Below are positions 160-42,051 of a stretch of 42,758 bases of DNA, piece by piece. Numbering within the stretch: the stretch's first letter is position 1; each line of letters opens with the position of its first letter. Where the stretch lies: NCBI GenBank assembly GCA_021817705.1, contig JAKAGB010000002.1:1-42758 (forward strand), written 5' to 3'. The stretch comes from a bacterium (GTDB lineage Bacteria; Patescibacteriota; Minisyncoccia; Phycocordibacterales; Phycocordibacteraceae). The position numbers and the translations under genes are program-made. Under the pieces are notes generated by a model. It did no database searches and had not been told where the DNA came from. It was given only the letters and a program-made list of their open reading frames with translations.

Positions 160-190
160 ATAAAAAAACGGCGGGATATATCCCGCCGTC
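160..190 (-). terminator. Intrinsic terminator of the 205-468 orphan gene
   Basis: Stem ACGGCGGGA-TATA-TCCCGCCGT followed by a T7 run on the minus strand. Confidence 0.8.
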
Positions 191-204
191 AAGAATGCAC
201 AGCC

Positions 205-468
205 TCAACGTCGTGTAATGGTCGTCATTAACGCGCGAGCTGTCTTCTCGTTACTTTCTGCGATGGTGCGCAACGCGTCAGACGCTTTCGGACCGCTCTG
301 GACGGCGCCGAGAAGCATAAGCATGAAGGCATGAATCTGTATCTCGATTTCTCCCAGAACCACTCGGCGCAACTGATTTGGCAAGGCGTCCAAATTTGCC
401 GCGAGGTCTTCGGGTAATTCCCAGTCGAGGCTGCCAACGTGTTCGTCAGTGTAGTTGATGACCTGCAT
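205..468 (-). CDS. Hypothetical protein (87 aa), solitary cassette between scpA and scpB
   Basis: ORF with GGAGG SD (474-478), own promoter and terminator; no recognisable motif. Confidence 0.7.
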   Translation of the reverse strand: MQVINYTDEHVGSLDWELPEDLAANLDALPNQLRRVVLGEIEIQIHAFMLMLLGAVQSGPKASDALRTIAESNEKTARALMTTITRR

Positions 469-518
469 TGATTCCTCCGTCGGATTGACGAGAGCAGCTC
501 GTCGTTCATCCGGAGGCT

Positions 519-547
519 AACATAGCATATGCAGTTGTAAATGTCAA
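519..547 (-). promoter_or_regulatory. Sigma70-type promoter TTGACA-17-TATGTT with extended TG
   Basis: Minus strand reads TTGACA tttacaactgcatatgc TATGTT. Confidence 0.7.
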
Positions 548-562
548 GCCTTCCCAAAAACG

Positions 563-1303
563 CTACCCGTACCGAGGGGTAGCAGCCGCCGTGTTTGAAA
601 TGCGAATATCGCCGTACTGCTCGAACTGTTCGGCAGCGACGGCGCCCTGCTTGACGAGCTCAAGGAGCGCAAGGAACGAGACGATGACCTCTACCTTCTC
701 TCTTGCGGTGCCGGCAAATTCTTTGAACGACAGATTCATGGCTGTTTGCACGCGCTTTGCGAGCCGGTCCATCATTTCTTCGATGGTGACCATCGGCTTC
801 ACGCGGGCTTCGGGGAGTTTTTCTACCGCTTCGCGCGCGGCAAGCACGCGCGCGAGTGCTTCGGCAAGCGCCTCCTTGGTGAGGTCTTTGGCGGGCGCGA
901 ACACGGGCTCGGGTACGCGCTCACCCGCGTTCACCATTACGTTTTTGCCAAAAAGGCGGCCGAGCTCTTTGGCGGCCTCGCGCACTTTTTCGTATGCTTC
1001 GAGGCGCTTCTTCAGGTCGTCCACATCGCCCTGCTCTTCTTCGGTCAAGGAGAGGTCGGGGATGAGCGACTTGGATTTTATGAGAAGCAGCGTGGCGGCT
1101 ATCTGGATGAAATTCGCGGTCTCTTCCACCGGGAACGCTTCTTGCGCGCGCACATGCTGAATGAAGTCGTCCGTGATTGAGGCGAGCGCGAGGTCGTTCA
1201 CCAAAAGCTTCCGTGCTTCGATGAGGTCGAGCACCAGCTCGAACGGCCCCTGGAATCCGTCGGTCTTGATCGAAAAGCCGGTTTTAAGCGTCGTCGGGTT
1301 CAT
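563..1303 (-). CDS. scpA: Segregation/condensation protein A (kleisin)
   Basis: FQGPFELVLDLI N-terminal motif, AATLLLIKSKSLIP, C-terminal SFLALLELVKQG...Q...YGDI. Confidence 0.95.
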   Translation of the reverse strand: MNPTTLKTGFSIKTDGFQGPFELVLDLIEARKLLVNDLALASITDDFIQHVRAQEAFPVEETANFIQIAATLLLIKSKSLIPDLSLTEEEQGDVDDLKKRLEAYEKVREAAKELGRLFGKNVMVNAGERVPEPVFAPAKDLTKEALAEALARVLAAREAVEKLPEARVKPMVTIEEMMDRLAKRVQTAMNLSFKEFAGTAREKVEVIVSFLALLELVKQGAVAAEQFEQYGDIRISNTAAATPRYG

Positions 1304-2633
1304 TCGTATCGTCGGGAATGGAACCGGAAAGGAGGACGTCGATGCGGTTCATGTCGCGCGGGAAGAGCGTAGCCTCTTTTACGTTCTCGAGGCCGAGGTA
1401 CTTCTGCGTGAGACGCTCGAGACCCATACCGATGCCGCCGTGCGGCGGAAGGCCGTACTTGAAGGCCATGAGGTAGAACGAGAACTTTTCCGGGTCGAGG
1501 CCCTTGGCGCGGATTTTCTCCACCAGCATGTCGTAGTCGTGCACGCGCTGGCTGCCCGAAAGGATTTCGACGCCGCGGAAGAGGAGGTCGAAGCTCTTCG
1601 TGAAGCCGGGGTCGGCCTCGTCTTCCATCGTGTAGAACGGGCGCTTCGAAACCGGATAGTGCGTGACGAATACGAAGTCGCTCCCCTTTTCTTTGGCCGC
1701 CCATGAAGAGAGCTTGCGTTCGTGCTCGGGCTCGAGGTCAGGTTCGGTTTCGGAAACGCCAAGGATGCGCTGCGCCTCGCGCAGTTTTACTACCGGGAAT
1801 GACTCCGGCACGAGAGGGAGCGTCGCGCCGCAAGTCGCGAACGCTGCCGCGGAACGTTCGCCGAGGCGCTTCGTTATGTACTTCAGCGCGCCTTCTATCA
1901 TGCGCATCACGTCCGTATGGTCGTTAATGAAGCCCATTTCGAAGTCGAGCATGGAAATTTCGTTCAGGTGGCGCGTCGTGGCGTGCTTTTCTGCGCGAAA
2001 CTGCGGACCCGCGGCGTACACGCGCTCGAACGCGCCCACCATCATCTGCTTGTAGAGCTGCGGCGACGTGGCAAGGTACGCGGACTTGTCCTTGAAATAT
2101 TCCACCTTGAAGACGCCCGCACCGCCCTCGGCGTCGTCGCCCACGAGCTTCGGCGCCTGGAATTCGGTGAAGCCTTCGGCGTTCAGATATTCGCGGAAGC
2201 CGGCGAGAATCTCGTGCTGTACGGCGAAGATGGCGCGTTCGCGCGCGCGGCGTACCGTGAGGGGGCGGTAGTCGAGCAAGGTGTCGAGGTTGAGGTCGGC
2301 GTCGTCGGCAAACGGCAAGGGTTCCGCGCGCGAAAGGATTTCGATGCTGAGCACTTCGAGTTCGATGCTGCCGTTCTGCTTGCCTGCCTGCACGTTCTTT
2401 TCCGGGCGCTGGTTCACTTTGCCTAAGACGCGCACCACGTATTCGCCGCGGCACTCCTTGGCTGCGTCCATAGCCGCAGAGCCGGGGAGCACGACGCCCT
2501 GAACGAATCCAGAGCGGTCGCGGAAGTCGAAGAACACCATCTTGCCCTGGTCGCGCCGCACGTCTACGGAGCCGGCAATGGAAACCTCTGCGCCCACGTG
2601 CGCGGACAGATCGGCTATGAGGGTTCGTTCCAT
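1284..2633 (-). CDS. aspS: Aspartate--tRNA(Asp/Asn) ligase, short non-discriminating type
   Basis: OB-fold N-terminus, YLATSPQLYKQ, motif 2 FRAE, motif 3 PPHGGIGMGLERL; 449 aa, lacks the bacterial insertion domain. Confidence 0.93.
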   Translation of the reverse strand: MERTLIADLSAHVGAEVSIAGSVDVRRDQGKMVFFDFRDRSGFVQGVVLPGSAAMDAAKECRGEYVVRVLGKVNQRPEKNVQAGKQNGSIELEVLSIEILSRAEPLPFADDADLNLDTLLDYRPLTVRRARERAIFAVQHEILAGFREYLNAEGFTEFQAPKLVGDDAEGGAGVFKVEYFKDKSAYLATSPQLYKQMMVGAFERVYAAGPQFRAEKHATTRHLNEISMLDFEMGFINDHTDVMRMIEGALKYITKRLGERSAAAFATCGATLPLVPESFPVVKLREAQRILGVSETEPDLEPEHERKLSSWAAKEKGSDFVFVTHYPVSKRPFYTMEDEADPGFTKSFDLLFRGVEILSGSQRVHDYDMLVEKIRAKGLDPEKFSFYLMAFKYGLPPHGGIGMGLERLTQKYLGLENVKEATLFPRDMNRIDVLLSGSIPDDTNEPDDA

Positions 2634-2650
2634 GGCGTATAAAATACCAC

Positions 2651-2682
2651 AAAAAAGAAGACCCGCGCAGGTCGTGCGCGGG
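2651..2682 (-). terminator. Intrinsic terminator of the 2691-2978 gene
   Basis: CCCGCGCA/TGCGCGGG stem followed by TCTTCTTTTTT on the minus strand. Confidence 0.75.
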
Positions 2683-2690
2683 CAGATTCT

Positions 2691-2978
2691 TCACCATTTT
2701 TTACTCTCAACATGCCAGTACACATGCGAGGTGCGGAAGCCGTACGATCCTTCAGTCGCTGGGACTTCATCCGACTCGATCCGGTCGACAATGAAATTGA
2801 CCGTATAGCGATATTCCTTCAGAATTCGCTGCTCACATTTTTTCAACTCGGATTGAATCCTTCCACCAGCATTGTCCAAGCTTTGGTCAATCTGGTATGG
2901 GGTACGGCCATCGCGGGGGCTGAACCACGGCAATGTGACACGAATGATCTCCACGCCGGAGTCTATGATGGTGTGCAC
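2691..2978 (-). CDS. Hypothetical protein (95 aa), solitary cassette between trpS and aspS
   Basis: GTG start with GAGGAG SD (2985-2990); promoter TTGCGT-17-TACATT (3033-3005) overlapping the trpS end; visibly lower GC. Confidence 0.65.
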   Translation of the reverse strand: MHTIIDSGVEIIRVTLPWFSPRDGRTPYQIDQSLDNAGGRIQSELKKCEQRILKEYRYTVNFIVDRIESDEVPATEGSYGFRTSHVYWHVESKKW

Positions 2979-3025
2979 AGCGCTCTCCTCTCAAATCCGC
3001 GAGGAATGTACCACCGAACAATGGC

Positions 3026-3964
3026 TCACGCAACGCCCACGGCCTTGCGCACTTTTTCCATCTTGGCCTCGGAAACCGCGCGGGCTTGTCGGCCGCCGTC
3101 TTCAAGCACGGCGGCAACGTCTGCGCTCGTGATGCTCGCGCGCTTTTCGCGCATGGGCGCAAGGTATCGGTCGAGGTCTTCAATAAGCATTTCTTTGAGC
3201 GCTTTGTAGTTGCCCTGGTTACTTCCATATATGGAAGTGAGTTCGGTCTCGTCGCGCACGAGCTTGTGGATGGCGTAGACGTTTTCGGGGCGGTCGCCCG
3301 AAGAGTCCGTCACGATGCTCATGACGGCTTTCGCGAGCTCGTCCTTGGTGCCGAAGAGCGGTACGGTGTTCTTGTAGCTCTTACTCATCTTCTTGCCGTC
3401 AGTGCCCGGTACGACGCCAACGCCGGACAGGATCTTTTCCTTCGGTTCCTTAAAGAGTTCGCCGTAGGTGTTGTTGAATTTTACGGCTGCCTCGCGTGCG
3501 TACTCGACATGCTGGCGCTGGTCTTCGCCTACGGGCACCACGTCGGTGTCGTAGAGCAGGATGTCCGCTGCCATGAGCATGGGGTACGTGAAGAGTCCGG
3601 CGTTCGCTTCGAGCCCCTTCGCGACTTTGTCTTTGTACGCATGCCCCTGCATAAGAAATGGCACAGAAACGAGGCAGTCGAAAATCCACGCGAGCTCGGT
3701 GTGCGCCGGCACAGTGGACTGTTTGAATATGATCGCTTTCTTCGGGTCGACGCCGGACGCGAGATAATCCTTCACCACCTCGACGATATTCTTCCGCACC
3801 GCCTCGGGGTCTTTGAGCGAAGTGAGCGCGTGGTAGTCGGCCACCATGAGGTAGCTGTCGTATGCTTCGTAGAGGTCGACGAACGGTTTGATGGCGCCGA
3901 AGTAATTACCGATGTGGAGTTCGCCGGAGGACTGCAGGCCGGTAAGGAGTACGGGCTTATTCAT
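3026..3964 (-). CDS. trpS: Tryptophan--tRNA ligase
   Basis: HIGN and KMSKS motifs, YPMLMAADILLY, VPVGEDQRQH. Confidence 0.97.
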   Translation of the reverse strand: MNKPVLLTGLQSSGELHIGNYFGAIKPFVDLYEAYDSYLMVADYHALTSLKDPEAVRKNIVEVVKDYLASGVDPKKAIIFKQSTVPAHTELAWIFDCLVSVPFLMQGHAYKDKVAKGLEANAGLFTYPMLMAADILLYDTDVVPVGEDQRQHVEYAREAAVKFNNTYGELFKEPKEKILSGVGVVPGTDGKKMSKSYKNTVPLFGTKDELAKAVMSIVTDSSGDRPENVYAIHKLVRDETELTSIYGSNQGNYKALKEMLIEDLDRYLAPMREKRASITSADVAAVLEDGGRQARAVSEAKMEKVRKAVGVA

Positions 3965-3984
3965 GCGGACACAATAGCACGATT

Positions 3985-4070
3985 TGGTGCGCCGGGTTGG
4001 ATTCGAACCAACGTAGCCCGAAGGCGACAGGTTTACAGCCTGTTGTAATTGACCACTCTACCACCGACGC
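3985..4070 (-). tRNA. tRNA-Tyr (GTA), CCA encoded
   Basis: Cloverleaf: acceptor GCGTCGG/CCGGCGC, anticodon arm ACAGG-CTGTAAA-CCTGT, long variable arm, GGTTCGAATCC T-arm, ACCA end; immediately downstream of tyrS. Confidence 0.95.
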
Positions 4071-4099
4071 GAACCGTCGCAGTATACCGCGCCGACCGA

Positions 4100-5353: not shown

Positions 5354-5369
5354 GGCGACCATTCTAGCA

Positions 5370-7163
5370 TTATTCGTGGAGGCCGATGTGGAGCTCGTAG
5401 AGCCGGCGGTAGATGCCGTTCGGGAGCGTGAGGAGTTCTTCGTGCGTGCCGCGCTCAGTAATCTTCCCGTCTTTAAGCACGAGGATGAGGTTCGCCTTAC
5501 GCACCGTGGAAAGACGATGCGCCACTATGAAGGTGGTGCGGCCATGCATGAGCTCTTCGAGCGCTTTACTAATGTACTGTTCGGTCTCCGGGTCGAGCGC
5601 GCTCGTGGGTTCGTCCAAGATGAGGATGCGCGGATTGCGCAGCATCGCTCGCGCGATGGCGATGCGCTGCTTCTGCCCCACCGAGAGCTTCACGCCGCGC
5701 TCGCCCACCTCCTGCGCGTAGCCGTTTTGAAATTTTGCAATGAATGCATCGGCGTGCGCGCGTTCGGCCGCGCGGTGCACCTCTTCGTCGCTTGCCTCCG
5801 GGCGGCCGTAGCGGATGTTGTCGGCTATCGAGGCATTGAAAAGCACGACCTCCTGCGGCACTACGGCGATCTGAGAGCGCAGCTCCGTGAGTGAGAGGCG
5901 ACGGATGTCGTGGCCGTCTATTTCCACTGTGCCCTCCGTCGGGAAGTAGTAGCCGGAGATGAGCTCGGTGGTGGTGGATTTGCCGACGCCGGTCTCCCCG
6001 ACGAGCGCCACCGACTGCCCCGCGCGCGCCTCGAACGAGATGCCTGCCAAGATTTCGCGGCCTTTCGGTTCATAGCGGAAGTGCACTCCCTTGAAGCCCA
6101 CGTTGCCCTGCAATACGCCGAGCGGTTCGGTGTCTTTCGGCGCGTAGACCTCGCTCGGCGTCGCGAATATCTTCTCGACGCGTGCCACGGCCACGAGCCC
6201 GTTCTGGAGCGTCTGCCACTGGTTGCCAAGCGCGACGAACGGCCCGATTATCATCCCCGCGTACGCGTTGAACGCGATGAGCTCGCCTATGGTGATGGCG
6301 CCGCTCGTCACGTAGTAAACGGAAAAGAGCAGAATGAGCCCCTGCACTCCGGCAACGATGATGCGCTGCGCGAAGGTCATGTTGCTCCACGCCACTTCGA
6401 GCCGGTACCAGAGCGGAATTGCCTTCGCATGAAATCCGGCGCGGATGCGCTCGCCCTCGTACGCCTCTGCGCCTGCCTGTTTTACGGTCTGGAAGTTCGC
6501 GTACGCGTCTTGCGCATCGCCCGCAGTGCGATTCCATATATTGAACGCTTCCATCTGCACGCGGCTCGTGGCCGGCAAAATAGCGACAAGGATGACAACG
6601 TAGAGCGCAATGCCCGCAACCATAAGAAGTGCGAGCTGCGGGAGGATGAGGAACGATATGACGATACCGATGAGGATGGTGAGGAATTGCGGCGCGAGCG
6701 AGGTGATGGTTCCCGTGAGCGCCGAAAGCATCCACGCGGCGCGGCTGATGGTCTCGGTTATCTCGCCCGCGCGCGCCTTCTTGAAGAACCCGAGCGGCAC
6801 GGTAAGCAGGTGCGCGTACGCGCGAGCCTGTATGCCCGCTTCGAGTTCGGTGGTGAGCCGACGGGTGCGTCGGTCGATGACCCACGACACGCCGCTCACG
6901 AACACCTGAATGACGACCCATGCGGCGATGAGCGCTTCCCAGAACGGCACGCTGCCCGCATAGGGCAGCACAAGCATGCGCGGCGTGATGAGGCCGTCGA
7001 AGAAACGACCGGTGATGTACGGCACGACGCCATTGCCGATGGCGGTGAGGATTTCGAGAACCGAAAGGAAGATGAGCGTGCTCCTGTATGGCGTAAGCTG
7101 GCGCGCAAGCGCTGCTTTTTTCTGCTGCCACGTAAAGGACTCTTTCCGCTCGGGCGCGGTCAT
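5370..7163 (-). CDS. ABC exporter, fused permease/ATP-binding (MsbA-like)
   Basis: Multi-TM N-terminal domain; Walker A GETGVGKS, LSVGQKQR signature, ILILDEPTSALD, AHRLST; start placed at MTAPERK, 6 nt after TACAAT. Confidence 0.93.
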   Translation of the reverse strand: MTAPERKESFTWQQKKAALARQLTPYRSTLIFLSVLEILTAIGNGVVPYITGRFFDGLITPRMLVLPYAGSVPFWEALIAAWVVIQVFVSGVSWVIDRRTRRLTTELEAGIQARAYAHLLTVPLGFFKKARAGEITETISRAAWMLSALTGTITSLAPQFLTILIGIVISFLILPQLALLMVAGIALYVVILVAILPATSRVQMEAFNIWNRTAGDAQDAYANFQTVKQAGAEAYEGERIRAGFHAKAIPLWYRLEVAWSNMTFAQRIIVAGVQGLILLFSVYYVTSGAITIGELIAFNAYAGMIIGPFVALGNQWQTLQNGLVAVARVEKIFATPSEVYAPKDTEPLGVLQGNVGFKGVHFRYEPKGREILAGISFEARAGQSVALVGETGVGKSTTTELISGYYFPTEGTVEIDGHDIRRLSLTELRSQIAVVPQEVVLFNASIADNIRYGRPEASDEEVHRAAERAHADAFIAKFQNGYAQEVGERGVKLSVGQKQRIAIARAMLRNPRILILDEPTSALDPETEQYISKALEELMHGRTTFIVAHRLSTVRKANLILVLKDGKITERGTHEELLTLPNGIYRRLYELHIGLHE

Positions 7164-7187
7164 GTATGCATTGTACACCGCACACAT

Positions 7188-7216
7188 AAAGAAAACGCCG
7201 CCCTTTTGGGGCGGCG
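7188..7216 (-). terminator. Intrinsic terminator of the radical SAM gene
   Basis: CGCCGCCC/GGGCGGCG stem followed by TTTTCTTT on the minus strand. Confidence 0.75.
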
Positions 7217-7221
7217 GGTGT

Positions 7222-8136
7222 TTACCGAGGACCGTGCCCGGTGTGAGCGACGTAGTAATCCTCGAGAAACTGTCCGCACGAGGAGCCGATGTCGGCGCCT
7301 GGCGGAGCGTAGAACTCGGTCTTGATGCCGTTCTCCTCGAGCGCATTGCGGATACGTCTTACGCGCGGCGAAGGCGTCCAGGCACATTCCGGCTTCGGAT
7401 TGTACCGAAGGAATTTCACCGGCAGGTCGCGTCCCTTCAAGAGGCGGACGAGCTCGGCGACATCTTCCTCGCGATCGTTCTCGCCCTCGATGAGCGAGTA
7501 GTGCACCTCGGCGGAGTTGCCGGTCTCGTGCATGAACTCGCTCACGAGGCGGACGCTTTCTTCCACCGGACTCGCGTGCGGCATCATCTCTTTGCGCACC
7601 GCATCGAATGGCGAGTGCAGCGACCAATGGAATTTCATTGCAAGGCCGCGCGTGCGCACCGCCTCGGTGAAACGCCGCATGGCCGCCGGCACCGGGATGA
7701 TGGAGGCAACTGCGAATCGCACCGTTTCGTACGCGCCTGCATACCAGTCGCGAATGAGCTCGCACGACTCAATCACGTTGCGTGCGTTCAGAAGCGGCTC
7801 GCCGCAGCCCATGTACGAGATGAGCAGGACGTCGTTCGCGTCGGGGCGTATGAGCAGCCGCAGGTCTTCTACGACATACTTCACGCCGTCTGCGATCTCT
7901 TCGGGCGAAAGATTCCGCACCGCGAGGTCATAGTCGGTCAGGAAGCAGAATTTGCAGCCCATCCTGCACCCGGTCTGGGAAGGAACGCAGATGATGTCCT
8001 TTCCGTCCCGTTTGTCGATGAAGCTGAATTCAAGCACTTGTCCTTGCGACAGGAACACGTACTTGACGGTGTTGTCCTGCTGCGAATGGATCTTGTCGAT
8101 AAGGACAAAACCAGGGTGAATCTCGATGTGTTGCAT
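7222..8136 (-). CDS. RlmN/Cfr-family radical SAM RNA methyltransferase-like protein (304 aa)
   Basis: ICVPSQTGCRMGCKFC (CxxxCxxC), MGCGEPL, SLHS, C-terminal GADIGSSCGQ; GGGAGA SD before MQHIE. Confidence 0.85.
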   Translation of the reverse strand: MQHIEIHPGFVLIDKIHSQQDNTVKYVFLSQGQVLEFSFIDKRDGKDIICVPSQTGCRMGCKFCFLTDYDLAVRNLSPEEIADGVKYVVEDLRLLIRPDANDVLLISYMGCGEPLLNARNVIESCELIRDWYAGAYETVRFAVASIIPVPAAMRRFTEAVRTRGLAMKFHWSLHSPFDAVRKEMMPHASPVEESVRLVSEFMHETGNSAEVHYSLIEGENDREEDVAELVRLLKGRDLPVKFLRYNPKPECAWTPSPRVRRIRNALEENGIKTEFYAPPGADIGSSCGQFLEDYYVAHTGHGPR

Positions 8137-8174
8137 GGCACTTCTCCCTTTGCTGACACGAGCTTCCGAACGGG

Positions 8175-8204
8175 AATGTACCAAGATTCTGTGCTCCATG
8201 TCAA
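8175..8204 (-). promoter_or_regulatory. Sigma70-type promoter TTGACA-18-TACATT with extended TG
   Basis: Direct reading upstream of the radical SAM gene. Confidence 0.65.
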
Positions 8205-8219
8205 CCCGCCCGAAAACGG

Positions 8220-8750
8220 TTATCGAGCGAAGAAAAAGAGGCCGATGGCGGGGGCGGCGAACCAGTAGAAGAAGTATTGCGTCGGCGCAAAGAGCTGCGC
8301 GATGGTGGGCGTGAAGTGATAGACGTCGGTTACGGAGAACACGTGGTACGCGAGCGCGATGAGGAATGCCGCGCCCAGGGTCGCTAAGATGATGTGCCCG
8401 AAAAGGCCGATGTAGAGGAAGTCGGAAACGACGACGCGACGCAAGATGATGTAGAACACGAGCACGAGGCCGAAGTAGACCGCCGCGTGCGAGAGCACGG
8501 CCGTGAGCGCAGGCGCGGACGGCAGGAACGCGAGGTACGGGAACGCGGCATAAATGGCATAGCCGGCATAGAACGAAAGAAGGAGCGCCACAAAGGGGCC
8601 GCGGCCAACGTAGCGCGCAAAGAGGAAGAGCGCGCTCGCGAGGATGAGGAGCGCGAGCACGTTGCCGAGCACCGCATAGGCCGAAAGCGCCGTGTGCGTG
8701 GCGAGCGCGTTCATCTGATTGAGCGCGTCTTGGGCAGACGTGGCGGACAT
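8220..8750 (-). CDS. Multi-pass membrane protein (176 aa)
   Basis: About five hydrophobic helices; start MSATSAQ 6 nt after TACAAT; the upstream ORF extension overlaps dnaJ and was rejected. Confidence 0.8.
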   Translation of the reverse strand: MSATSAQDALNQMNALATHTALSAYAVLGNVLALLILASALFLFARYVGRGPFVALLLSFYAGYAIYAAFPYLAFLPSAPALTAVLSHAAVYFGLVLVFYIILRRVVVSDFLYIGLFGHIILATLGAAFLIALAYHVFSVTDVYHFTPTIAQLFAPTQYFFYWFAAPAIGLFFFAR

Positions 8751-8767
8751 GGACTCATTGTAGCGTA

Positions 8768-8790
8768 CGCGCGCCGCTCCGCGGCGCGCG
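8768..8790. repeat. 23-bp palindromic repeat, copy 1 (inverted, GGA loop)
   Basis: Reverse complement CGCGCGCCGCGGAGCGGCGCGCG; one mismatch to copies at 23786 and 26418. Confidence 0.7.
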
Positions 8791-8794
8791 CTGT

Positions 8795-9898: not shown

Positions 9899-9904
9899 CG
9901 TGAG

Positions 9905-11794
<1,890 letters not shown>

Positions 11795-11845
11795 AGTCAA
11801 ATAGGTTACTGAGTCAATTTTACGTAAACCGGATTTCCAGCGCAA

Positions 11846-12367: not shown

Positions 12368-12392
12368 GTGCTTAGTATGCCAAAATGGAGCC

Positions 12393-12428
12393 AAAAAGAA
12401 AACGCGCCCGCCCTTTTGGGCGAGCGCG
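12393..12428 (-). terminator. Intrinsic terminator of the 12441-13094 gene
   Basis: 11-bp GC stem with one wobble, followed by TTTTCTTTTT on the minus strand. Confidence 0.75.
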
Positions 12429-12440
12429 GTTGCGCAGCGA

Positions 12441-13094
12441 CTAGTCGCTGCGCGGAATGAGGCCTTGGCGACGATTCAGTGGCCCGCCGCGCCGTCGAGG
12501 TTTTTTCAGCTTGCGTACGGGTGGGTCAGATTCCGGAAGGATGTCTGGATGGGTGAAGAACACATCCGTGTCCAGTTTCTCGCGCGGTTTCTGCTCCTCC
12601 TTGTAGACCGGCGGCGCAATGAGCGCCGAATCGCCAGCGGCGAGCCGCTCTGCGATACGACCGAAGAGATTCACCAAGCCCTCCCGGCCGTGGGTCATAG
12701 AGAAGGTGACCAGCGTCATTTCGCCCTCGAGGTGGCGCACCTGCGCATCTATTAGCTCGGCAACATAGTTCGTTACATTCTCGAGCTTCATGTCACGGAG
12801 GCGCGGCAGATCGCTTGCCCGCAGAACCGTTCGGGTCGCGCGGTACACATGACCAAGCTCCGAGAAACGGACAGCTTTTGCGGACCACACGCTGACGCCC
12901 TTCCCCGCTGCGTCGACGCAGAGGTCGCTGAAGCAGTACGACGCCGCGTCCATGAGACGCCTTTGCGTCTCGAGGACGATCTCGCGCAATAGCTCGGCGC
13001 CGATGCGCTTCGTGTTTAACGGTTGCCGAACGGGCATACCGATGAGCGCAAGGATCTTCTCACGACGGGCTTCGGCTGACAGTACTTTATGCAT
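12441..13094 (-). CDS. Hypothetical protein (217 aa, basic C-terminal tail), solitary cassette between rpsI and grpE
   Basis: AAGGGAG SD, own promoter and terminator. Confidence 0.7.
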   Translation of the reverse strand: MHKVLSAEARREKILALIGMPVRQPLNTKRIGAELLREIVLETQRRLMDAASYCFSDLCVDAAGKGVSVWSAKAVRFSELGHVYRATRTVLRASDLPRLRDMKLENVTNYVAELIDAQVRHLEGEMTLVTFSMTHGREGLVNLFGRIAERLAAGDSALIAPPVYKEEQKPREKLDTDVFFTHPDILPESDPPVRKLKKPRRRGGPLNRRQGLIPRSD

Positions 13095-13121
13095 GGAACA
13101 TCTCCCTTGGTTTCCGAAAGA

Positions 13122-13150
13122 AATCTAACTCCTGAGCAGCGATTTGTCAA
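13122..13150 (-). promoter_or_regulatory. Sigma70-type promoter TTGACA-17-TAGATT
   Basis: Direct reading, abutting the rpsI terminator. Confidence 0.7.
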
Positions 13151-13183
13151 GAAAAACGGAAACCGCCCTCGCGGGCGGTTTCA
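13151..13183 (-). terminator. Terminator of the ribosomal protein/rpoA operon
   Basis: GAAACCGCCC-GCGA-GGGCGGTTTC hairpin then TTTTT after the rpsI stop. Confidence 0.75.
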
Positions 13184-13189
13184 AGTCGA

Positions 13190-13935: not shown

Positions 13936-13948
13936 AGAGGCTTTCATA

Positions 13949-14302: not shown

Positions 14303-14320
14303 AGTGATGCTGGTTACTGG

Positions 14321-15259: not shown

Positions 15260-15318
15260 AACTCAATCGTTGTAACCGGATAAGTGAAATAAATCCTACA
15301 ATAGAAACGTTTTTTGCG

Positions 15319-16781: not shown

Positions 16782-16782
16782 A

Positions 16783-21486: not shown

Positions 21487-21515
21487 AAAAAGAAAGGAGC
21501 CGCGCGTGCGGCTCC
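21487..21515 (-). terminator. Intrinsic terminator of the 21531-21932 gene
   Basis: GGAGCCGC/GCGGCTCC stem followed by TTTCTTTTT. Confidence 0.75.
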
Positions 21516-21530
21516 GATTGGGTTACAGTT

Positions 21531-21932
21531 TTACCTGTTCGCTCTCACCACCTTATCGGCGACTGCGTTCATGAGTTTGAAGGCGCGCTTGATGGAGGCC
21601 TCATCCTTAAGAGACGCAGGCATGGGGTCAGGGTTCCTGCTGGTAGGCCAGCTGATCGAAACCCGCTTGGTGTACTTACTGCGCTCGGCATAAATAATCA
21701 TGCCCTCAAAGCTGTCGTGACACGTCACGGTCAGGCTTTCCTCGAAGTCCTGAGGAATGTTACGGAACTTGTAATCCAGGTAGACCGTATATCCCCGCCA
21801 GCGCAAAATGGTCGCCGGGAAGTCTTTCTTCCATCGGTGCTCAATCAGATCAGTTCCATCGGGAGTCTTCGGAAGCTTGAGGCCAGCGAGCGTGGCTTGC
21901 GCTTTGCGCAACAAAGAACTTGCGCTAATCAT
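21531..21932 (-). CDS. Hypothetical protein (133 aa), solitary cassette upstream of alaS
   Basis: GAAGGAG SD; promoter TTGACA-16-TATCGT (22022-21995); lower GC. Confidence 0.7.
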   Translation of the reverse strand: MISASSLLRKAQATLAGLKLPKTPDGTDLIEHRWKKDFPATILRWRGYTVYLDYKFRNIPQDFEESLTVTCHDSFEGMIIYAERSKYTKRVSISWPTSRNPDPMPASLKDEASIKRAFKLMNAVADKVVRANR

Positions 21933-22034
21933 TGCACTCTCCTTCGCGAGTCGGTAGGACGGGAAATCCGGCCTTCAATCCCAACTCATATGATACGATA
22001 TCATATCTATTCGGTCTGTCAAGCGCCGCGGTTC

Positions 22035-23824: not shown

Positions 23825-23849
23825 CCCGCGCGAGCGAAGCTCGCGCGGG
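23825..23849 (-). terminator. Hairpin/terminator after the 23856-24278 gene
   Basis: CCCGCGCGAGC-GAA-GCTCGCGCGGG; followed by ATTACTTTT on the minus strand. Confidence 0.6.
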
Positions 23850-23855
23850 TGTTGT

Positions 23856-24278
23856 TTAGGAACGTACTTCCGGGTCTTTCAGGAAGAGCGGCAACTCGGT
23901 TACGAATTGGCTGCGCTCTGCACAATAATGTCGCACCAAGGCCGCAACAGCGAAACGCATTATCTCCTTACTATATGGCACGCTGGGGTTTGTTACGTCC
24001 AGGACTGCATGCGCTGTACCGAATTCCGGCCATGTCTTCACAATGGCTTCGAAGTCGCACGAGGCGCCTGAGTACACGTATCCACTCTCGGGTTCTCCCA
24101 GATACCCAATGATGGATGATTGTCGGATGGTTCCGAGGAGCAAGTTGTCGAGTTCCAGACGGTTTTGCTCTCGTTCACTATCGTTCCCCAATCTGAGACG
24201 CCTGATCTCCCTACACCCAAAAAGCGCATGGATTTCGAAATGCGTCGCTCGTTGATGCGATTCAATCTGTGCGGGCAT
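23856..24278 (-). CDS. Hypothetical protein (140 aa), solitary cassette
   Basis: AAGGAGG SD (24284-24290); promoter TTGAAA-17-TAGAGT (24334-24306); lower GC. Confidence 0.65.
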   Translation of the reverse strand: MPAQIESHQRATHFEIHALFGCREIRRLRLGNDSEREQNRLELDNLLLGTIRQSSIIGYLGEPESGYVYSGASCDFEAIVKTWPEFGTAHAVLDVTNPSVPYSKEIMRFAVAALVRHYCAERSQFVTELPLFLKDPEVRS

Positions 24279-24322
24279 CTCGCCCTCCTTTTCTGATCCG
24301 CGCGCACTCTAGCACTCGGCGC

Positions 24323-24754
24323 TTAGCCTTTCAATGCAAGATGCGCCGGTTCGGCGACCACCGGCTTCTTCGATTTGAAGAATTTCTGCACGCCGGCAAA
24401 AAACTTCGTGACCTTCGCGTCGTTCACGTGCGTGATGTTGCAGAGGTGTGTGTTCACGATTGCCGAACCGTATTCCGGCCAGGTGTGGACGTCGATGGCG
24501 CTCTCGCCTATCCAGGCAAGGTACGTGTAGCCGTGTTTGGCTTCATCGCTGTAGCGTTCGACCGAAGAGCCGAACAAGGTGAGCCCGGCCGCACGCACGA
24601 GGTCGTCGATGGCCGTACGCATCTCGGCCAGATGTTCGCCGGTGCCTACCTCGAGCCGGTCGGCGCGTTTGCACGAATAAAACGCCGCAGGACGGATGAT
24701 GCTCTCGGGCATTCCGGTGAACTCAGCCGAAGTTCCGTGCTTTTTCGTTTTCAT
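24323..24754 (-). CDS. speD: S-adenosylmethionine decarboxylase proenzyme-like (class 1, pyruvoyl-dependent)
   Basis: GESAIDVHTWPEYG...C: Glu-Ser self-cleavage site, His at +5 and Cys at +20 as in class 1B AdoMetDC. Confidence 0.75.
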   Translation of the reverse strand: MKTKKHGTSAEFTGMPESIIRPAAFYSCKRADRLEVGTGEHLAEMRTAIDDLVRAAGLTLFGSSVERYSDEAKHGYTYLAWIGESAIDVHTWPEYGSAIVNTHLCNITHVNDAKVTKFFAGVQKFFKSKKPVVAEPAHLALKG

Positions 24755-29030: not shown

Positions 29031-29061
29031 AGAAAAACGCCGCTTCGTGAGAAGCGGCGTT
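29031..29061 (-). terminator. Intrinsic terminator after the 33-aa peptide gene
   Basis: AACGCCGCTTC/GAAGCGGCGTT stem followed by T-rich tail on the minus strand. Confidence 0.75.
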
Positions 29062-29077
29062 GCGCGGGAATGCGGAA

Positions 29078-29179
29078 CTAGGGGTGCGGTACGCCGTGAG
29101 AGCATGCCACGACCCACGCGAGGAATGCGAACACGATAAGGACTGCCGCGCTCGCTATCCATCTGAGCCGATTACGCAT
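29078..29179 (-). CDS. 33-aa hydrophobic peptide with lipobox-like VVAC (not in ORF track)
   Basis: MRNRLRWIASAAVLIVFAFLAWVVACSHGVPHP; AAGGAGG SD, TGcTAGAAT -10 (29208-29213), terminator downstream. Confidence 0.65.
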   Translation of the reverse strand: MRNRLRWIASAAVLIVFAFLAWVVACSHGVPHP

Positions 29180-29219
29180 GTCGGCCTCCTTCCTTCTACA
29201 CGGCGCTATTCTAGCACAG

Positions 29220-36538: not shown

Positions 36539-36634
36539 AGGGATAATGTGATTAGGTTATATCAGATGCCTCGAAAATAGTCAACGGGCACCACTATACC
36601 ACAACATTACGCCACAATGCCACCCACAGGCCGC

Positions 36635-36662
36635 TTGACATACAGACTCATTGCTGTATCGT
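36635..36662 (+). promoter_or_regulatory. Sigma70-type promoter TTGACA-16-TATCGT
   Basis: Direct reading upstream of the lipoprotein gene. Confidence 0.6.
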
Positions 36663-36689
36663 CTTCCCTGGAAGAAAGGAGTGATTGTT

Positions 36690-37079
36690 ATGAAAATGTT
36701 GCTTGCAATCGTCTTCGCGGCCGTTGCGCTTTCTGCCTGTAGTAACAAGCCGAACTCGGCTGAAACTGCGCGCGTTAAGGCGGTCGATGCCAGGGTGGCA
36801 CCCTATTGCAGCACGAAACCATTGCTTATTACCGAAGGCGTGGACTACTATCCGCATCTTTGCGGCGCCATCATCAATTATGATGGCGACGTGCTCGTGT
36901 TAACCGGGTATCATCCGCAACGTGGCGAACTGCTCGTGGTATGGGCCGACAGCAGAGGCACTGACTTCGATCAGACATTTATGCCCGACCCAAAGAGAAT
37001 CCGAGCCGTATATGCATTCGGCGATCCGCAAGCCACGTCGCTGTTAACGCAGTGGAAAGCAAAACACTACACGCATTAG
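36690..37079 (+). CDS. Putative lipoprotein (129 aa), solitary cassette
   Basis: MKMLLAIVFAAVALSAC signal with LSAC lipobox; AAGGAG SD; lower GC. Confidence 0.75.
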   Translation: MKMLLAIVFAAVALSACSNKPNSAETARVKAVDARVAPYCSTKPLLITEGVDYYPHLCGAIINYDGDVLVLTGYHPQRGELLVVWADSRGTDFDQTFMPDPKRIRAVYAFGDPQATSLLTQWKAKHYTH

Positions 37080-37085
37080 AAATAC

Positions 37086-37126
37086 AGCAGTGTGAGGACT
37101 TTGTTCCTCGCACTGCTTTTATTTTT
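37086..37126 (+). terminator. Intrinsic terminator of the lipoprotein gene, convergent with leuS
   Basis: AGCAGTGTGAGGA/TCCTCGCACTGCT stem followed by TTTATTTTT. Confidence 0.75.
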
Positions 37127-39507: not shown

Positions 39508-40059
39508 TTAGTCTCTAAATTTCTTCACGCCGACATACATGAGCGCGCCGAGCGCGATGGCCGCAATGATGAGCCGCAGCCAGTTGCCCGCCGTGCCCCA
39601 ATAGGAAGCGCTACCGATCACGAGCGCCACGACGCCGCCATAGGAAAGGCCGTTCGCGACTGCGGAGGAGCCGAGCGGCAAAAATCCCACGAAGAGCGAC
39701 GCGATGCCGAACACCATCATCGCGACGAACGCGTAGAGCGCATGCGCATCCACGGCGTTCTGGAACGGCACCTGGCATTTGGCGGTGAGGTCGCAGTAGC
39801 CCGAAGGAGCGACCGGCTTCGTGGCACCGGCGGGCGCAGGCGTGGGATATTCCGTCCACGTGCCGCCAGCGCTATCGCAATCGGCAGCGTTCTGCGGAGT
39901 CGGCGCAGTCGCCGACGGGCAGTACGCGTTATAGTCCGGCGCCGGGAGCGCGATAGACAGAATGACCGCAAAAAAGAGGTTCAGTACGACGACGATGCCG
40001 AGCGTGAGCGCCCAGCGTACGAAACGCGGCGTGCGCGATGTCGCGATAGAGGATTCCAT
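39508..40059 (-). CDS. Membrane protein with Cys-containing extracellular loop (183 aa)
   Basis: One TM, a loop with four Cys, then three TMs. Confidence 0.8.
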   Translation of the reverse strand: MESSIATSRTPRFVRWALTLGIVVVLNLFFAVILSIALPAPDYNAYCPSATAPTPQNAADCDSAGGTWTEYPTPAPAGATKPVAPSGYCDLTAKCQVPFQNAVDAHALYAFVAMMVFGIASLFVGFLPLGSSAVANGLSYGGVVALVIGSASYWGTAGNWLRLIIAAIALGALMYVGVKKFRD

Positions 40060-40084
40060 ACGCCTTGGATTGTACCATTTTTAT

Positions 40085-40122
40085 AAAAAGAAGCCCGCAA
40101 GCGCATTCTGCGCTGCGGGCTT
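40085..40122 (-). terminator. Intrinsic terminator of the 40128-40730 gene
   Basis: AAGCCCGCA/TGCGGGCTT stem followed by CTTTTT on the minus strand. Confidence 0.7.
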
Positions 40123-40127
40123 GTAGT

Positions 40128-40730
40128 TCATGAGTGCTTCCATTCACGGAGCTTCTGCTCCAAGAATGCGAAGTCGGCGTTTGCGTGCGCACAGTCGGTG
40201 CGCACCTGGCGATCAAAGAAATCGTGGCCAGGAATGCGCATGACAACGCGAACGGGTTTGCACCCGTGCTCGGCCGGAAGCGCAATGAGGCGCGCTTTCC
40301 AAACCGACACGCCCGCCGCCCTGAAAACGGCAGCGAGCTTGCGCGTCGCGTGTTCGTGCGCAACCGAGCGTCTCGCCCGGACTGCGTGCGACTTCGGCAC
40401 GAACGAGTCGCGCACAGCCGGAGCCGCGAATGCGAGTTCGTTCGCGCCATAGCCGACCGTGTTCGCCCGGATATCCGCCTGGTAGTTCGCAAGGAACCAC
40501 AGGCCGAATATGATGAACAGACCGCTCAGGAAGCCTCGCTTCGAGTGCGAGACGGTGCCGCTTATTTCGCTGCGGAGCGAGCGGTGCCTCGCCGTACAAG
40601 GCACCAGCGGCGCATCTCCGCGCATTCGCGCGAAGTCGGCCGTAAGTGCTGCGCGTGCCGCTGCGGCACGCGCTTCAACCGAGGCTGGCGTCTGCCGGCC
40701 ACGGAATCGGAACAGACCGAGAAAACTCAT
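40128..40730 (-). CDS. Hypothetical single-TM basic protein (200 aa), solitary cassette
   Basis: GAGGAG SD; promoter TTGACA-17-TACCAT (40810-40782); central hydrophobic helix. Confidence 0.6.
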   Translation of the reverse strand: MSFLGLFRFRGRQTPASVEARAAAARAALTADFARMRGDAPLVPCTARHRSLRSEISGTVSHSKRGFLSGLFIIFGLWFLANYQADIRANTVGYGANELAFAAPAVRDSFVPKSHAVRARRSVAHEHATRKLAAVFRAAGVSVWKARLIALPAEHGCKPVRVVMRIPGHDFFDRQVRTDCAHANADFAFLEQKLREWKHS

Positions 40731-40806
40731 GACACTGGTACTCCTCTAAGGTTCTGCATGCCTGTTTGCATGCCGCAGGCCATGGTAGCACACTGCGATG
40801 TGTATG

Positions 40807-42051
40807 TCAAGTGCCGGGCACGGCGCGGGCTATTTCGTCGAAGTGCTTCCCGCTCTCGGAAACGTAGGTGTAGAGTCCCTCTCTCCCGTGCGGCCCTTTT
40901 GCCGGGCAGTAGGAAATGAACGGCCGCTCGCCACCCTCCGCCCAGCCGATGAGCGCCCCGTGTGCAGTGGTGGGGAGCGTGTGGTTCGCGGCCAAGAGCT
41001 GCGTGAGCGTGCGCTCGTCCATTTCCGAAATCTTCTGCGGGTAGTAGTCGCCCGCTTTGCCGGGATGCCGTCGTCGCAAGCTGCGGAGAGCTACCGCGAG
41101 GTTGTGCACGTTGTAAAGGATAGCGGCGCCCGCGTGGTCGCGCAGGGTCATAAGTTCCTCTACCGTATCCGGAATGCGCTTGTCTTCCGGGAGCGCTTGG
41201 TTCGCGAGCGCCGCATACCGGTACTGCGGTTTCCCGTGGCGTTCTTGCACGTCAAGCGCGAATTTGGTGAATTGAAACATACCGAACGAGACGAGCGCAT
41301 CATAGAGCGAAGGGATGCGCAGCAGGAATTCCGTGCCGGCGTTCTCAAGAAGGAACCGGTATACATCCACGCCACCGGGCATGATTTCAGTCATGGAGTA
41401 GGCGGCGAGCACATTCCCGTTTATACGCGAGGCAAGATGCAGGAGCATTTTCAAATCCCATGCGCCATCGGCGCCTTCAAACCCGTAGAGCTCATGCAAA
41501 CGCGTAGGCTCGATGCTCTCGACGAGCTCGCGCGCGAGGTTGGTCATCTTACCGAGATACGATTCAAAATCCGGCTCAAGCCCTTCCTGTGCGTTGTCGC
41601 GGAGTGCAGCGTATTCTTTCACGAGCGCATCGCCGAACTGTCTCGTCTCAGCACTTTCGCTCCGGTTCAGTTTCGTCTTTTCATCCCACATCTCATGCAG
41701 GTTGAGCTTGAACGAAAGTGGCTCTTGGGCGCGAATCTCGCCTTCGTGGCCGAAATAGTAGTGCGTGAGGCCGGTCGCGCGTCGATCCGCAAGAGTGCCC
41801 ATACGGTATAGGCGCGGTTCTCGCATCGGCTCGCCATGATGAGCGAAGAGCTCGAGCTTTCTGCCAGGATAGTATTCGACAAACCGCGGCTTCGTATACT
41901 CGTATGCCGCCGCACCGAGGCCAGTGCCTATCGCCCCTATCGCCGTGACCGACTTTGCGGCTTCTTTCGCGCTCTCTAAGAACCCGCGACGGGTGATGCC
42001 CGAAAGTTCTTCCTGTGGCGATGACGCGGGTCGGAATCGCTCTGCGCTCAT
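40807..42051 (-). CDS. Hypothetical protein with twin-arginine-like N-terminus (414 aa)
   Basis: ITRRGFL followed by a weakly hydrophobic segment; SFGMFQFT; start 7 nt after TGcTATCGT. Confidence 0.7.
   Translation of the reverse strand: MSAERFRPASSPQEELSGITRRGFLESAKEAAKSVTAIGAIGTGLGAAAYEYTKPRFVEYYPGRKLELFAHHGEPMREPRLYRMGTLADRRATGLTHYYFGHEGEIRAQEPLSFKLNLHEMWDEKTKLNRSESAETRQFGDALVKEYAALRDNAQEGLEPDFESYLGKMTNLARELVESIEPTRLHELYGFEGADGAWDLKMLLHLASRINGNVLAAYSMTEIMPGGVDVYRFLLENAGTEFLLRIPSLYDALVSFGMFQFTKFALDVQERHGKPQYRYAALANQALPEDKRIPDTVEELMTLRDHAGAAILYNVHNLAVALRSLRRRHPGKAGDYYPQKISEMDERTLTQLLAANHTLPTTAHGALIGWAEGGERPFISYCPAKGPHGREGLYTYVSESGKHFDEIARAVPGT

Follow-up and report, generated by a model that had tools for sequence, protein, structure and literature searches.

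How do single genes of no recognisable ancestry come to lie between the housekeeping genes of an ultra-small bacterium, and how would they be expressed there? The question is raised by contig C7 (JAKAGB010000002.1, 42,758 nt), which is the whole stretch of DNA analysed here and is called the window. The contig belongs to a metagenome bin of 614 kb in 52 contigs, with 61% G+C and 88% completeness. The genome is ultra-small and of the Parcubacteria type of the candidate phyla radiation (CPR), a placement in keeping with the genome sizes of its relatives (0.4-1.0 Mb) and with the 16S and uL1 traits given below, and no sign of an alternative genetic code was seen in it. The window genes lie nearly all on the minus strand and are mostly housekeeping genes. 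Between them the initial annotation had placed nine self-contained cassettes, each with a promoter, a Shine-Dalgarno (SD) motif and a hairpin terminator, and had proposed that they belong to a dispersed pool of moron-like genes inserted singly at gene junctions. We found that the start grammar, as read from sequence signals, cleanly separates core from accessory genes in this genome. The nine units are likely to be species-specific accessory genes that were inserted at junctions as insulated units, in a genome with two start grammars.

Nine SD-led units between housekeeping genes

A read-out of 120 nt 5′ and 80 nt 3′ of each gene, together with consensus scans, located all nine units with their promoters, SD motifs and hairpin terminators at the places given in the initial annotation. 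Each combines a −10 element with a GGAG-type motif, which lies 5-10 nt upstream of the start codon, and with a GC hairpin that leads into a T-rich tail. Every single open reading frame (ORF) has its own predicted promoter, which is a −35/−10 pair in eight of the nine units and an extended −10 alone in one, and the hairpin and T tract 3′ of all nine (9/9) are predicted intrinsic terminators. The −35 tally that had been described, with TTGACA in six units, TTGAAA in one, TTGCGT in one and an extended −10 only in one, was an exact match.

Cassette 1 (167..547, minus strand) has the promoter TTGACA-17-TATGTT (547..519) and GGAGG 5 nt before the ATG of a coding sequence (CDS) for 87 aa (205-468); its hairpin (190..167) is followed by TTTTTATT. 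The promoter of cassette 2 (2661..3033, minus strand) is TTGCGT-17-TACATT (about 3033..3005), and its −35 box overlaps the TrpRS stop. An AGGAG motif, a CDS for 95 aa with a GTG start (2691-2978) and a hairpin (2683..2661) followed by CTTCTTTTTT complete this unit. Cassette 3 (7196..8204, minus strand) combines TTGACA-18-TACATT (8204..8175) and GGAGA with a CDS for 304 aa (7222-8136), and its hairpin (7216..7196) runs into TTTTCTTTAT. The next unit, cassette 4 (12403..13150, minus strand), has TTGACA-17-TAGATT (13150..13122), GGGAGA, a CDS for an ORFan of 217 aa (12441-13094), and a hairpin (12428..12403) with the tail TTTTCTTTTT. Cassette 5 (21496..22022, minus strand) also encodes an ORFan, of 133 aa (21531-21932), behind TTGACA-16-TATCGT (22022..21995), a 62-nt leader and GGAGA, with a hairpin at 21515..21496. 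For cassette 6 (23825..24334, minus strand) the signals are TTGAAA-17-TAGAGT (24334..24306) and AAGGAGG, the CDS encodes 140 aa (23856-24278), and the hairpin (23849..23825) is two-way. Cassette 7 (29036..29217, minus strand) is the unit with the extended −10 alone, TGcTAGAAT (about 29208-29216); it has GGAGG, a CDS for 33 aa (29078-29179) and a hairpin at 29061..29036. Cassette 8 (36635..37117) lies on the plus strand, with TTGACA-16-TATCGT (36635..36662), GGAGT, a CDS for 129 aa (36690-37079) and a hairpin at 37086..37117. Cassette 9 (40083..40810, minus strand) starts with TTGACA-17-TACCAT (about 40810..40782), which overlaps the stop of the gene at 40807-42051, and has GGAGT 10 nt before the ATG of a CDS for an ORFan of 200 aa (40128-40730), followed by a hairpin and then CTTCTTTTTAT.

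Each unit has the stop codon of a core gene on one side and the −10 element of the following core gene on the other. As had been described for the minus-strand cassettes, the terminator tail abuts the −10 of the next core gene: in six minus-strand units the T tail passes into a −10 within a few bases, with 6-9 nt separating the end of this −10 from the ATG of the conserved gene that follows. At 7161..7195 (minus strand), for example, the tail of the cassette 3 terminator leads into TACAAT-GCATAC-ATG (7175..7161) of a conserved ABC-transporter gene. The lower G+C content noted for the cassettes was also borne out. The median G+C content at third codon positions (GC3) was 0.69 for the nine cassettes vs 0.80 for 35 window genes that are conserved in G015 (Mann-Whitney p = 6e-5); G015 is a complete genome of 993 kb from the same genus, with a DnaK 87% identical to that of this genome. 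Codon usage of the cassettes differs from that of the host, and a gene model with majority-class training failed to call three of the nine cassette genes.

The initial annotation had called eight of the nine proteins unrecognisable. For most of them we too found no family; three gave some indication of what they are, namely cassettes 3, 6 and 8. The best model for the cassette 3 protein was TIGR00048, with 131 bits against a cut-off of 290 and a match to model positions 71-343 only. The protein is thus predicted to be a divergent RlmN/Cfr-like radical-SAM RNA methyltransferase without the N-terminal ~70 model positions, related to the family and not an equivalog. The whole-genome family checks covered 29 relatives (17 of the same genus and 12 of the same order), and none of the 29 had a homologue. 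The whole order seems to be without RlmN, since cassette 3 is the sole family member in this genome and the 29 relatives. The cassette 6 protein shares 31% identity over 75 aa (E = 9e-10) and a common TWPE(Y/F)G motif with the product of the adjacent AdoMet-decarboxylase-like (AdoMet_dc) gene at 24323-24886, which marks it by sequence as a remote tandem paralogue of this neighbour; neither of the two (23856-24886) was found in the regions of the seven relatives compared below or in the whole of G015. The cassette 8 protein appears lipoprotein-like, with a predicted signal peptide followed by a Cys, and had no match in any of the 29 relatives.

Other searches gave little. Cassette 1 had no Pfam, NCBIfam, PHROG or PADLOC match and none in the regions of the seven relatives or the whole of G015, and the sole G015 match of cassette 2 was weak (E = 0.002, 36% over 56 aa). 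Cassette 7 encodes a hydrophobic peptide of 33 aa, and the cassette 9 protein has one hydrophobic segment. Searches of PHROGs, PADLOC and NCBIfam returned nothing meaningful for seven of the nine cassettes; in the PHROG scan of 11 window proteins, eight of nine cassettes had no match, and the exception was the radical-SAM gene. Among 5.8 billion proteins, cassettes 4, 5 and 9 matched only themselves, each on 5 contigs, and a full HMMER pass over 1.84 billion representatives gave only the self-match for cassette 6. The Atlas models were poor, with a predicted local distance difference test (pLDDT) score of 0.46 for 12441-13094 and 0.58 for 40128-40730 and no usable neighbour for either, and an AlphaFold2 single-sequence model of 23856-24278 had a mean pLDDT of 36.

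The housekeeping genes of the window encode ScpA, the Asn/Asp-, Trp-, Tyr-, Ala- and Leu-tRNA synthetases, DnaJ, DnaK and GrpE, the ribosomal proteins S9, L13, L17, S4, S11 and S13, and RpoA, MnmA, YceG and YchF. The AlaRS (19569-21470, minus strand) is just 633 aa long. It has the same length in five of the six congeners that hold an AlaRS, with 74-77% identity at full cover, and is 59% identical in G003.

Absence from relatives and traces of insertion

The 51 window proteins were searched by tblastn against the syntenic stretches of seven congeners (E<=1e-3). Alignment to relatives for presence, absence and synteny had been proposed as a check on the nine units, and conserved synteny with host-like codon usage had been named as an outcome that would count against the proposal. 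The result was in line with insertion: none of the nine cassettes (0/9) gave a match in regions where the flanking core genes were conserved and colinear, and for six of the nine at least one congener had an empty junction, where the flanks lay −6 to 82 nt apart. At the position of cassette 2 the gap was 7 nt in G015, 8 nt in G009, 17 nt in G014 and 82 nt in G003, and at that of cassette 3 it was 25, −6, 21 and 16 nt in four relatives. The GrpE|S9 junction of cassette 4 measured 75 nt in G004, the UDG|PD-(D/E)XK junction of cassette 7 measured 17 nt in G005, and the LeuRS|sigma junction of cassette 8 measured 44 nt in G015. In G003, cassette 9 and the gene at 40807-42051 were absent together, with 77 nt in their place. 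At the empty sites the downstream −10 lies at or over the upstream stop codon, as in CATAAT-ACTCGT-ATG of G015. Of the remaining three units, cassette 1 lies at the contig end, and cassettes 5 and 6 belong to the stretch between AlaRS and UDG, which in all relatives is variable and measures 2.7-13.7 kb.

Some junctions are filled recurrently. Inserts were found between GrpE and S9 in five relatives (794-2,724 nt), between TrpRS and TyrRS in five (497-2,951 nt) and between DnaJ and DnaK in three (702-1,674 nt). The GrpE|S9 inserts of the five relatives showed no similarity to cassette 4 or to each other, and the GrpE promoter directly behind the inserts was conserved in all. A search for conserved control sequences around these inserts gave no cross-genome similarity (blastn-short, E<=0.01). 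This genome, G014 and G015 each have a GrpE|S9 gene of 202-217 aa; the three genes have no detectable similarity, and their start grammars are not all alike.

An insertion footprint was found beside cassette 8. The LeuRS 3′ end is present there a second time, as a degenerate copy that reads ...AAT GTT GTG GTA TAG (36594..36627, minus strand) and lies between the cassette and the promoter of the sigma-factor-like gene. This relic aligns with the uninterrupted LeuRS-sigma junction of G015, and the last two codons and the stop of the LeuRS gene now come from the T tail of the cassette 8 terminator, on the opposite strand. The duplicated target is about 12-35 nt long and diverged, and it was seen only at this one of the nine units. 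In G007 the LeuRS|sigma junction (fragment about 16970-17230) holds an insert of ~90 bp with perfect 13-bp terminal inverted repeats, CCCCGTTAGAGAC ... GTCTCTAACGGGG, and duplicated TGGTA flanks. This insert lies exactly at the LeuRS stop codon and looks like a miniature inverted-repeat transposable element (MITE).

The initial annotation had seen no integrase or transposase in the window, and a scan of 50 window ORFs likewise gave no match to such a family. The 3′ hairpins of 46 units found genome-wide (see below) were compared by eye, with no attC model run, and shared no sequence beyond the GC stem and T tract. ComEC is present in the genome, and the match for DprA is weak. Saccharibacteria have been shown to be naturally transformable, and com genes were reported to be conserved across CPR (PMC10633639).

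Sequences from other runs were compared with the window; runs X1-X4 contain DNA of this population. Contigs of run X1 span 4850-8001 and 12239-13217 with 0 differences and so bridge two cassette junctions; the confirmation is not fully independent, because X1 may be the sample behind the bin. One X6/X7 contig connects 5353 to 8227 via 27 other letters (80% likeness). Read placement on 1-20000 (X1, X5, X6 and X7) gave mostly matches from other organisms, and the low or missing cover of X5-X7 over the cassettes was not used.

Two start grammars in one genome

Genes were called with a 3-periodic Markov model for which the long ORFs of the genome itself served as training set; this finder rewards SD motifs, and the ORFs behind it represent the majority class. 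Among 691 calls, 282 had leaderless-type signals, 146 had SD-type signals, 232 had no signal and 31 were cut by contig ends. A gene was scored as conserved when tblastn found it in G015 at E<1e-5 with a cover of at least 50%. By this measure 211/282 leaderless genes and 180/232 genes with no signal had a homologue in G015. The corresponding figures were 27/146 for SD genes, 8/76 for genes with a strong SD and no strict promoter, and 1/34 for genes with an SD and a −35 promoter. The association held when genes of 60-250 aa were length-matched (1/28 conserved for SD plus promoter vs 106/150 for leaderless, Fisher p = 9e-12) and at coding scores of at least 25 (8/41 conserved for strong SD vs 178/223 for leaderless). 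All 27 candidates for an SD on conserved core genes were inspected and rejected; their G015 orthologues are without an SD, and the cases are mostly mis-set or leaderless starts. Since none of the 27 keeps an SD in G015, conserved genes make essentially no use of it.

We also scanned for strict units by motifs only, leaving the coding model unused. A unit consisted of a −35 box with at least 5/6 matches, a 16-18 nt spacer, TAnnnT, GGAG or GAGG, a start codon and an ORF of at least 30 aa. The scan gave 46 units, 38 of them with a strict terminator, compared to 1 in the reversed genome and 2, 0 and 2 in three block shuffles, with 0 terminators in the controls. Only 1/46 had a homologue in G015. 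Seven of the nine window units passed; the other two failed because of their weaker promoters, as the initial annotation had described them. In G015 itself the scan found 32 units vs 5 in the reversed control, and 4/32 were common to this genome. The fetched fragments of the other six relatives held 0 to 6 units each (none in G004), with none in the reversed controls.

The other finding that the initial annotation had named as counting against it was that SD-led TTGACA promoters are equally common on core genes. This was not so. A −35 promoter lay within 120 nt upstream of 34/146 SD genes, 3/282 leaderless genes and 9/232 genes with no signal. Terminators showed the same division: one was present within 70 nt of the stop in 91/119 non-conserved SD genes and 29/34 SD-plus-promoter genes, compared to 37/282 leaderless and 53/232 no-signal genes. 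Intrinsic terminators are in this genome largely a feature of the inserts. The 34 SD-plus-promoter genes had a median length of 131 aa, a per-codon coding score of 0.10 vs 0.27 for leaderless genes (p = 6e-15) and a GC3 of 0.70 vs 0.78. SD-class proteins contained 1.3% Cys and 1.9% Trp, vs 0.4% and 0.9% in the core proteome, and their make-up was protein-like, unlike that of out-of-frame (shadow) ORFs. In an unbiased word count, GGAG occurred 5′ of 100/241 non-conserved genes, 8.7 times background, with the consensus AAGGAG(G/A/T), and the base after GGA was G in 102/149. Genome-wide, the SD motif was enriched 6-8 times at 6-7 nt upstream of starts.

A Pfam scan covered 81 of the 119 non-conserved SD proteins, namely those with a strong SD, at least 70 aa and a location outside the window; excluded were shorter proteins, window proteins, proteins truncated at contig ends, and any whose weak SD came without a promoter. 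Matches at E<=1e-4 were obtained for 18, of which 14 were above the curated cut-off. They included NAD synthase, nicotinate phosphoribosyltransferase, PP2C, PanD, NUDIX, nucleoside deoxyribosyltransferases, YkuD and a Usg-like protein. On contig C27 (about 5566-14484, plus strand) an SD-led run that is not conserved in G015 encodes a PP2C phosphatase, a 621-aa protein of no family, a glutamine-dependent NAD synthase, a 237-aa protein and a nicotinate phosphoribosyltransferase. This run is a multi-gene accessory islet for NAD salvage in the cassette grammar.

The conserved genes follow another pattern. A TAnnnT ending exactly 6 nt upstream was present at 13-15% of about 600 called starts vs 0.2% of 8,477 internal in-frame start codons, and further TAnnnT ends were found 7-9 nt upstream of called starts. 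At the 89 sites with a distance of 6, T was the base at −15 in 51%, G at −14 in 60% and C at −1 in 67%; ATG made up 91% of start codons, and no −35 signal was seen. The signal of the conserved genes is TGnTAnnnT, ending 6 nt (range 5-10) before (C)ATG, without an SD, and a −10 at a fixed short distance is kept at orthologous starts in relatives. By these signals the conserved genes are predicted to be leaderless, with no −35 box, no SD and usually no intrinsic terminator.

The tRNA genes lie mostly behind an extended −10, and a −35 box with at least 5/6 matches was found for 3/36. The 75 nt 5′ of many tRNA genes (Lys, Arg, Glu, Met, Asp, Ala) on contigs C3, C5, C19 and C24 and in G015 consist of a conserved leader, CTCGTTCGGCG, a variable hairpin and CCTCACTTC abutting the tRNA. 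This pre-tRNA leader is common to this genome and G015. It does not appear among the Rfam matches of the window, in which no leader-bearing tRNA lies.

CTAAC/TAACC(T) was enriched 20-70 times 5′ of conserved genes that lack both a −10 at 6 nt and an SD (12 and 10 of 179), with DnaK (9905-11794) and S4 (15319-15930) as window examples, and may be a variant −10 (TAACCT) at 8-10 nt. Species-specific genes are not all SD-led: 71/253 non-conserved genes were of the leaderless type. Two such genes lie in the window, 40807-42051 (minus strand) and 25379-25630 (plus strand), which have no relatives in the seven fragments or G015, yet show the leaderless grammar.

Origin and reading of the units

The absence of the cassettes from relatives, the empty junctions and the contrast between SD-led and core genes support the proposal of dispersed, singly inserted moron-like genes. 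On our reading, the nine would be joined by ~100 more genes genome-wide, gained singly or as small islets between a core stop codon and the next −10. The cassette format comprises a near-consensus −35/−10 pair and, ~6 nt past the −10, a predicted yGGAA start region. A short leader rich in purines comes next and carries a canonical AAGGAG(G), placed 5-8 nt ahead of the start, and the unit closes with a GC hairpin and a terminator of the TTTTCTTT type. A leaderless gene would be translated only from a transcript that starts at its own AUG, and each core gene would therefore keep a private promoter of about 12 nt. Junctions would then tolerate inserts as long as the next promoter survives. An insert could not borrow read-through or coupling and would be expressed only with its own, or an acquired, promoter and a ribosome-loading leader, and its terminator would stop transcription from running over the next promoter. 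The genes probably came from outside the native pool, by DNA uptake and illegitimate or microhomology-based integration followed by selection; this step is less certain than the others. Turnover would be fast, so that each species has its own set.

Several observations weigh against this reading. No donor is visible: all of the ORFans that were searched for in very large protein sets (4/4) lacked relatives anywhere, and the data do not support a recent import from any sampled organism. Those SD-led genes that can be recognised reach at most about 33-56% identity to anything found: the RlmN-like protein is 33-34% identical to many from Bacillota, PanD is 46-56% identical across several phyla (54-56% at best), and the Usg-like protein has one match, of 37%, in Alphaproteobacteria; a putative beta-barrel-like protein had no match in the related-locus search. 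Cassette 6 arose at least partly via local duplication and not by import. The longest words shared by the flanks of the nine units were 5-8 nt, within the range of shuffled sequence (mean 5.3-5.9, max 9-12), rve, DDE_Tnp_1, Y1_Tnp and TnpB had no match in the 88%-complete genome, and no integron integrase was found, the sole tyrosine recombinase (PF00589) being on contig C5. The promoters, yGGAA start region and TTTTCTTT tails are very uniform across unrelated genes, which makes it less likely that these signals were simply imported and more likely that they were selected or shaped within the lineage. The gene and start calls come from our own simple model, and conservation was scored genome-wide against one relative.

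The ribosome adds a further difficulty. The 16S gene is not in the assembly of this bin, and no partner for GGAG is visible in the 16S tail of the lineage, so that it is unclear whether GGAG works as an SD here. All congeners whose 16S end could be read (11/11) have the tail GGA(A/U)CAU(A/U)UCC, vs the bacterial consensus GGAUCACCUCC, with no CCUCC, and CCUCC is also missing from the 16S tail in 8/8 genomes of the same order. The Rfam small-subunit model aligned GGAACAUAUCCAAA to GGAUcACCUCCUUu with high posterior probability. For G015 the model was run on the 3′ part of the 16S gene alone, because with the whole locus it misplaced the 3′ end owing to an insertion of ~1 kb; this insertion lies near model position 1390 (16S locus positions about 430-1450). 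The ribosomal protein uL1 was found in 0/30 genomes searched and was present in all 14 control genomes. A canonical SD without a visible 16S partner is a part that our reading cannot explain; the GGAG-type motif itself is present in 9/9 units. The loss of the anti-SD is not new. A Parcubacteria subgroup lacking both the anti-SD and uL1 has been described (Tsurumaki et al. 2022, RNA 28:1041, PMC9297842), and this lineage resembles it in having no CCUCC and no uL1.

One extension of the insertion reading is that in Parcubacteria without an anti-SD the package of promoter, GGAG leader and terminator is the working format of a fast-turnover accessory pool and not a donor leftover, and that it provides a second initiation channel, apart from the leaderless core, for newly gained, species-specific genes in which GGAG is read by a putative non-16S factor. 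We regard this extension as doubtful.

Four other explanations were weighed against insertion. The units could be native, vertically inherited genes of a special regulon, whose homology was lost by fast divergence in place with no insertion at all. The uniform promoters, start regions and terminator tails, apparently adapted to the resident polymerase, would fit this, as would ORFans without outside relatives and the GrpE|S9 genes of like size (202-217 aa) in this genome, G014 and G015. However, the three same-sized genes are dissimilar and not all alike in start grammar, and the six junctions that are empty in at least one congener are too tight there, at −6 to 82 nt, to accommodate a diverged gene. 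None of the 29 relatives searched has the RlmN-like family, the amino-acid usage is unlike that of the native proteome, and the relic of the LeuRS end marks an insertion. Divergence in place is thus unlikely.

A separate translation channel, either through a putative non-16S reader of the GGAG leader, by which the accessory pool would be translated or regulated apart from the leaderless core, or because the units were built for the canonical ribosomes of another cell, would fit the strong enrichment of canonical AAGGAGG solely before non-conserved genes in a lineage whose 16S tail reads ...CAUAUCC.... The ORFs are also intact, and their signals are too regular for decaying relics. In contrast, GGA can still pair with the UCC left in the 16S tail, an A/G-rich unstructured leader may suffice for SD-independent loading, and nothing ties the cassettes to export. 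We consider such a channel very unlikely.

If the cassettes were ancestral and had been lost in the relatives by streamlining, the empty junctions would be deletions. The genomes are indeed reduced, and junction contents vary in all directions among the relatives. This explanation is nevertheless highly improbable: one and the same slot is filled by different, unrelated genes across species, the ancestor would have needed all the units when 1/46 of those here are common to G015 and 4/32 of the G015 units are common here, the composition is atypical, and the duplicated LeuRS end at cassette 8 is the trace of an insertion and not of a deletion. Lastly, an artefact of chimeric metagenome assembly or of gene and start calling, to which a bin in 52 contigs and a finder that favours SD motifs with majority-class training could be prone, is scarcely credible when the motif-only scan avoids the coding model with controls of 0-2, the association survives high coding-score cut-offs and length matching, junction sequences run cleanly into conserved neighbours, X1 contigs (possibly of the same sample) bridge two cassette junctions with no difference, and the ORFan proteins of cassettes 4, 5 and 9 are each on 5 contigs.

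Insertion of insulated accessory units has counterparts in known systems. In lambdoid phages, morons are autonomous units of promoter, gene and terminator that lie between conserved genes. The cassettes resemble them in being single genes with their own promoter and terminator, of atypical composition, placed between genes that are adjacent in relatives without disturbing these neighbours. They differ in that they lie in a cellular chromosome, among tRNA-synthetase, chaperone and ribosomal-protein genes and not in a prophage, and in that they also depart from the host in how translation is initiated. Flexible genomic islets, or ORFans at hotspots between core genes, are a concept of pangenome studies. 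The cassettes share with them short, compositionally atypical, lineage-restricted genes at recurrent slots (GrpE|S9, TrpRS|TyrRS). Here, in contrast, promoter type, translation signal and terminator use set islet genes systematically apart from core genes, so that the signals alone predict accessory status. Like integron cassettes, the units are single-ORF modules that end in a hairpin and draw on a variable gene pool; unlike them, they are dispersed and not arrayed, each has a promoter, and the hairpins are plain GC stems with a T tract. An insertion sequence or MITE is set apart by the lack of a transposase match in the genome and by unit flank repeats no longer than chance.

Bacterial genomes rich in leaderless genes have also been described, as GeneMarkS-2 'group C' (PMC6028130) and by Zheng et al. 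2011 (PMC3160421). To judge from the accessible parts of these papers, such genomes share with this one a −10 at a fixed short distance before the start and the lack of an SD; here, in contrast, nearly the whole conserved set is without an SD, the SD occurs only before species-specific genes, and its partner in the rRNA has been lost. For the Parcubacteria subgroup without an anti-SD, the word 'leaderless' has 0 occurrences in the accessible text of PMC9297842, and the account given there is without SD-bearing accessory genes, unlike the situation here. The parts are known separately, as moron-like units, ORFan islets, leaderless genomes and the loss of the anti-SD in Parcubacteria, and their combination appears to be new. 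Neither a limited literature search nor the accessible text of PMC9297842 gave a description of leaderless conserved genes together with a canonical SD confined to species-specific, self-contained genes.

These results bear on translation biology and on the interpretation of CPR genomes. Canonical-SD mRNAs in a cell whose ribosomes lack the anti-SD raise the question of how such mRNAs are translated, and hence of how strictly SD pairing is needed. A large share of the genes in ultra-small uncultured bacteria is of unknown function, and in this genome the mode of switching on a gene marks the gene as newly gained. If the signals sort the two pools reliably (1/46 units vs 75% of leaderless genes have a homologue in the congener), accessory and core genes could be separated from a single genome, and gene finders should model two start grammars in such genomes. 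Reduced genomes can still gain genes, and private 12-nt promoters would make their junctions safe landing sites.

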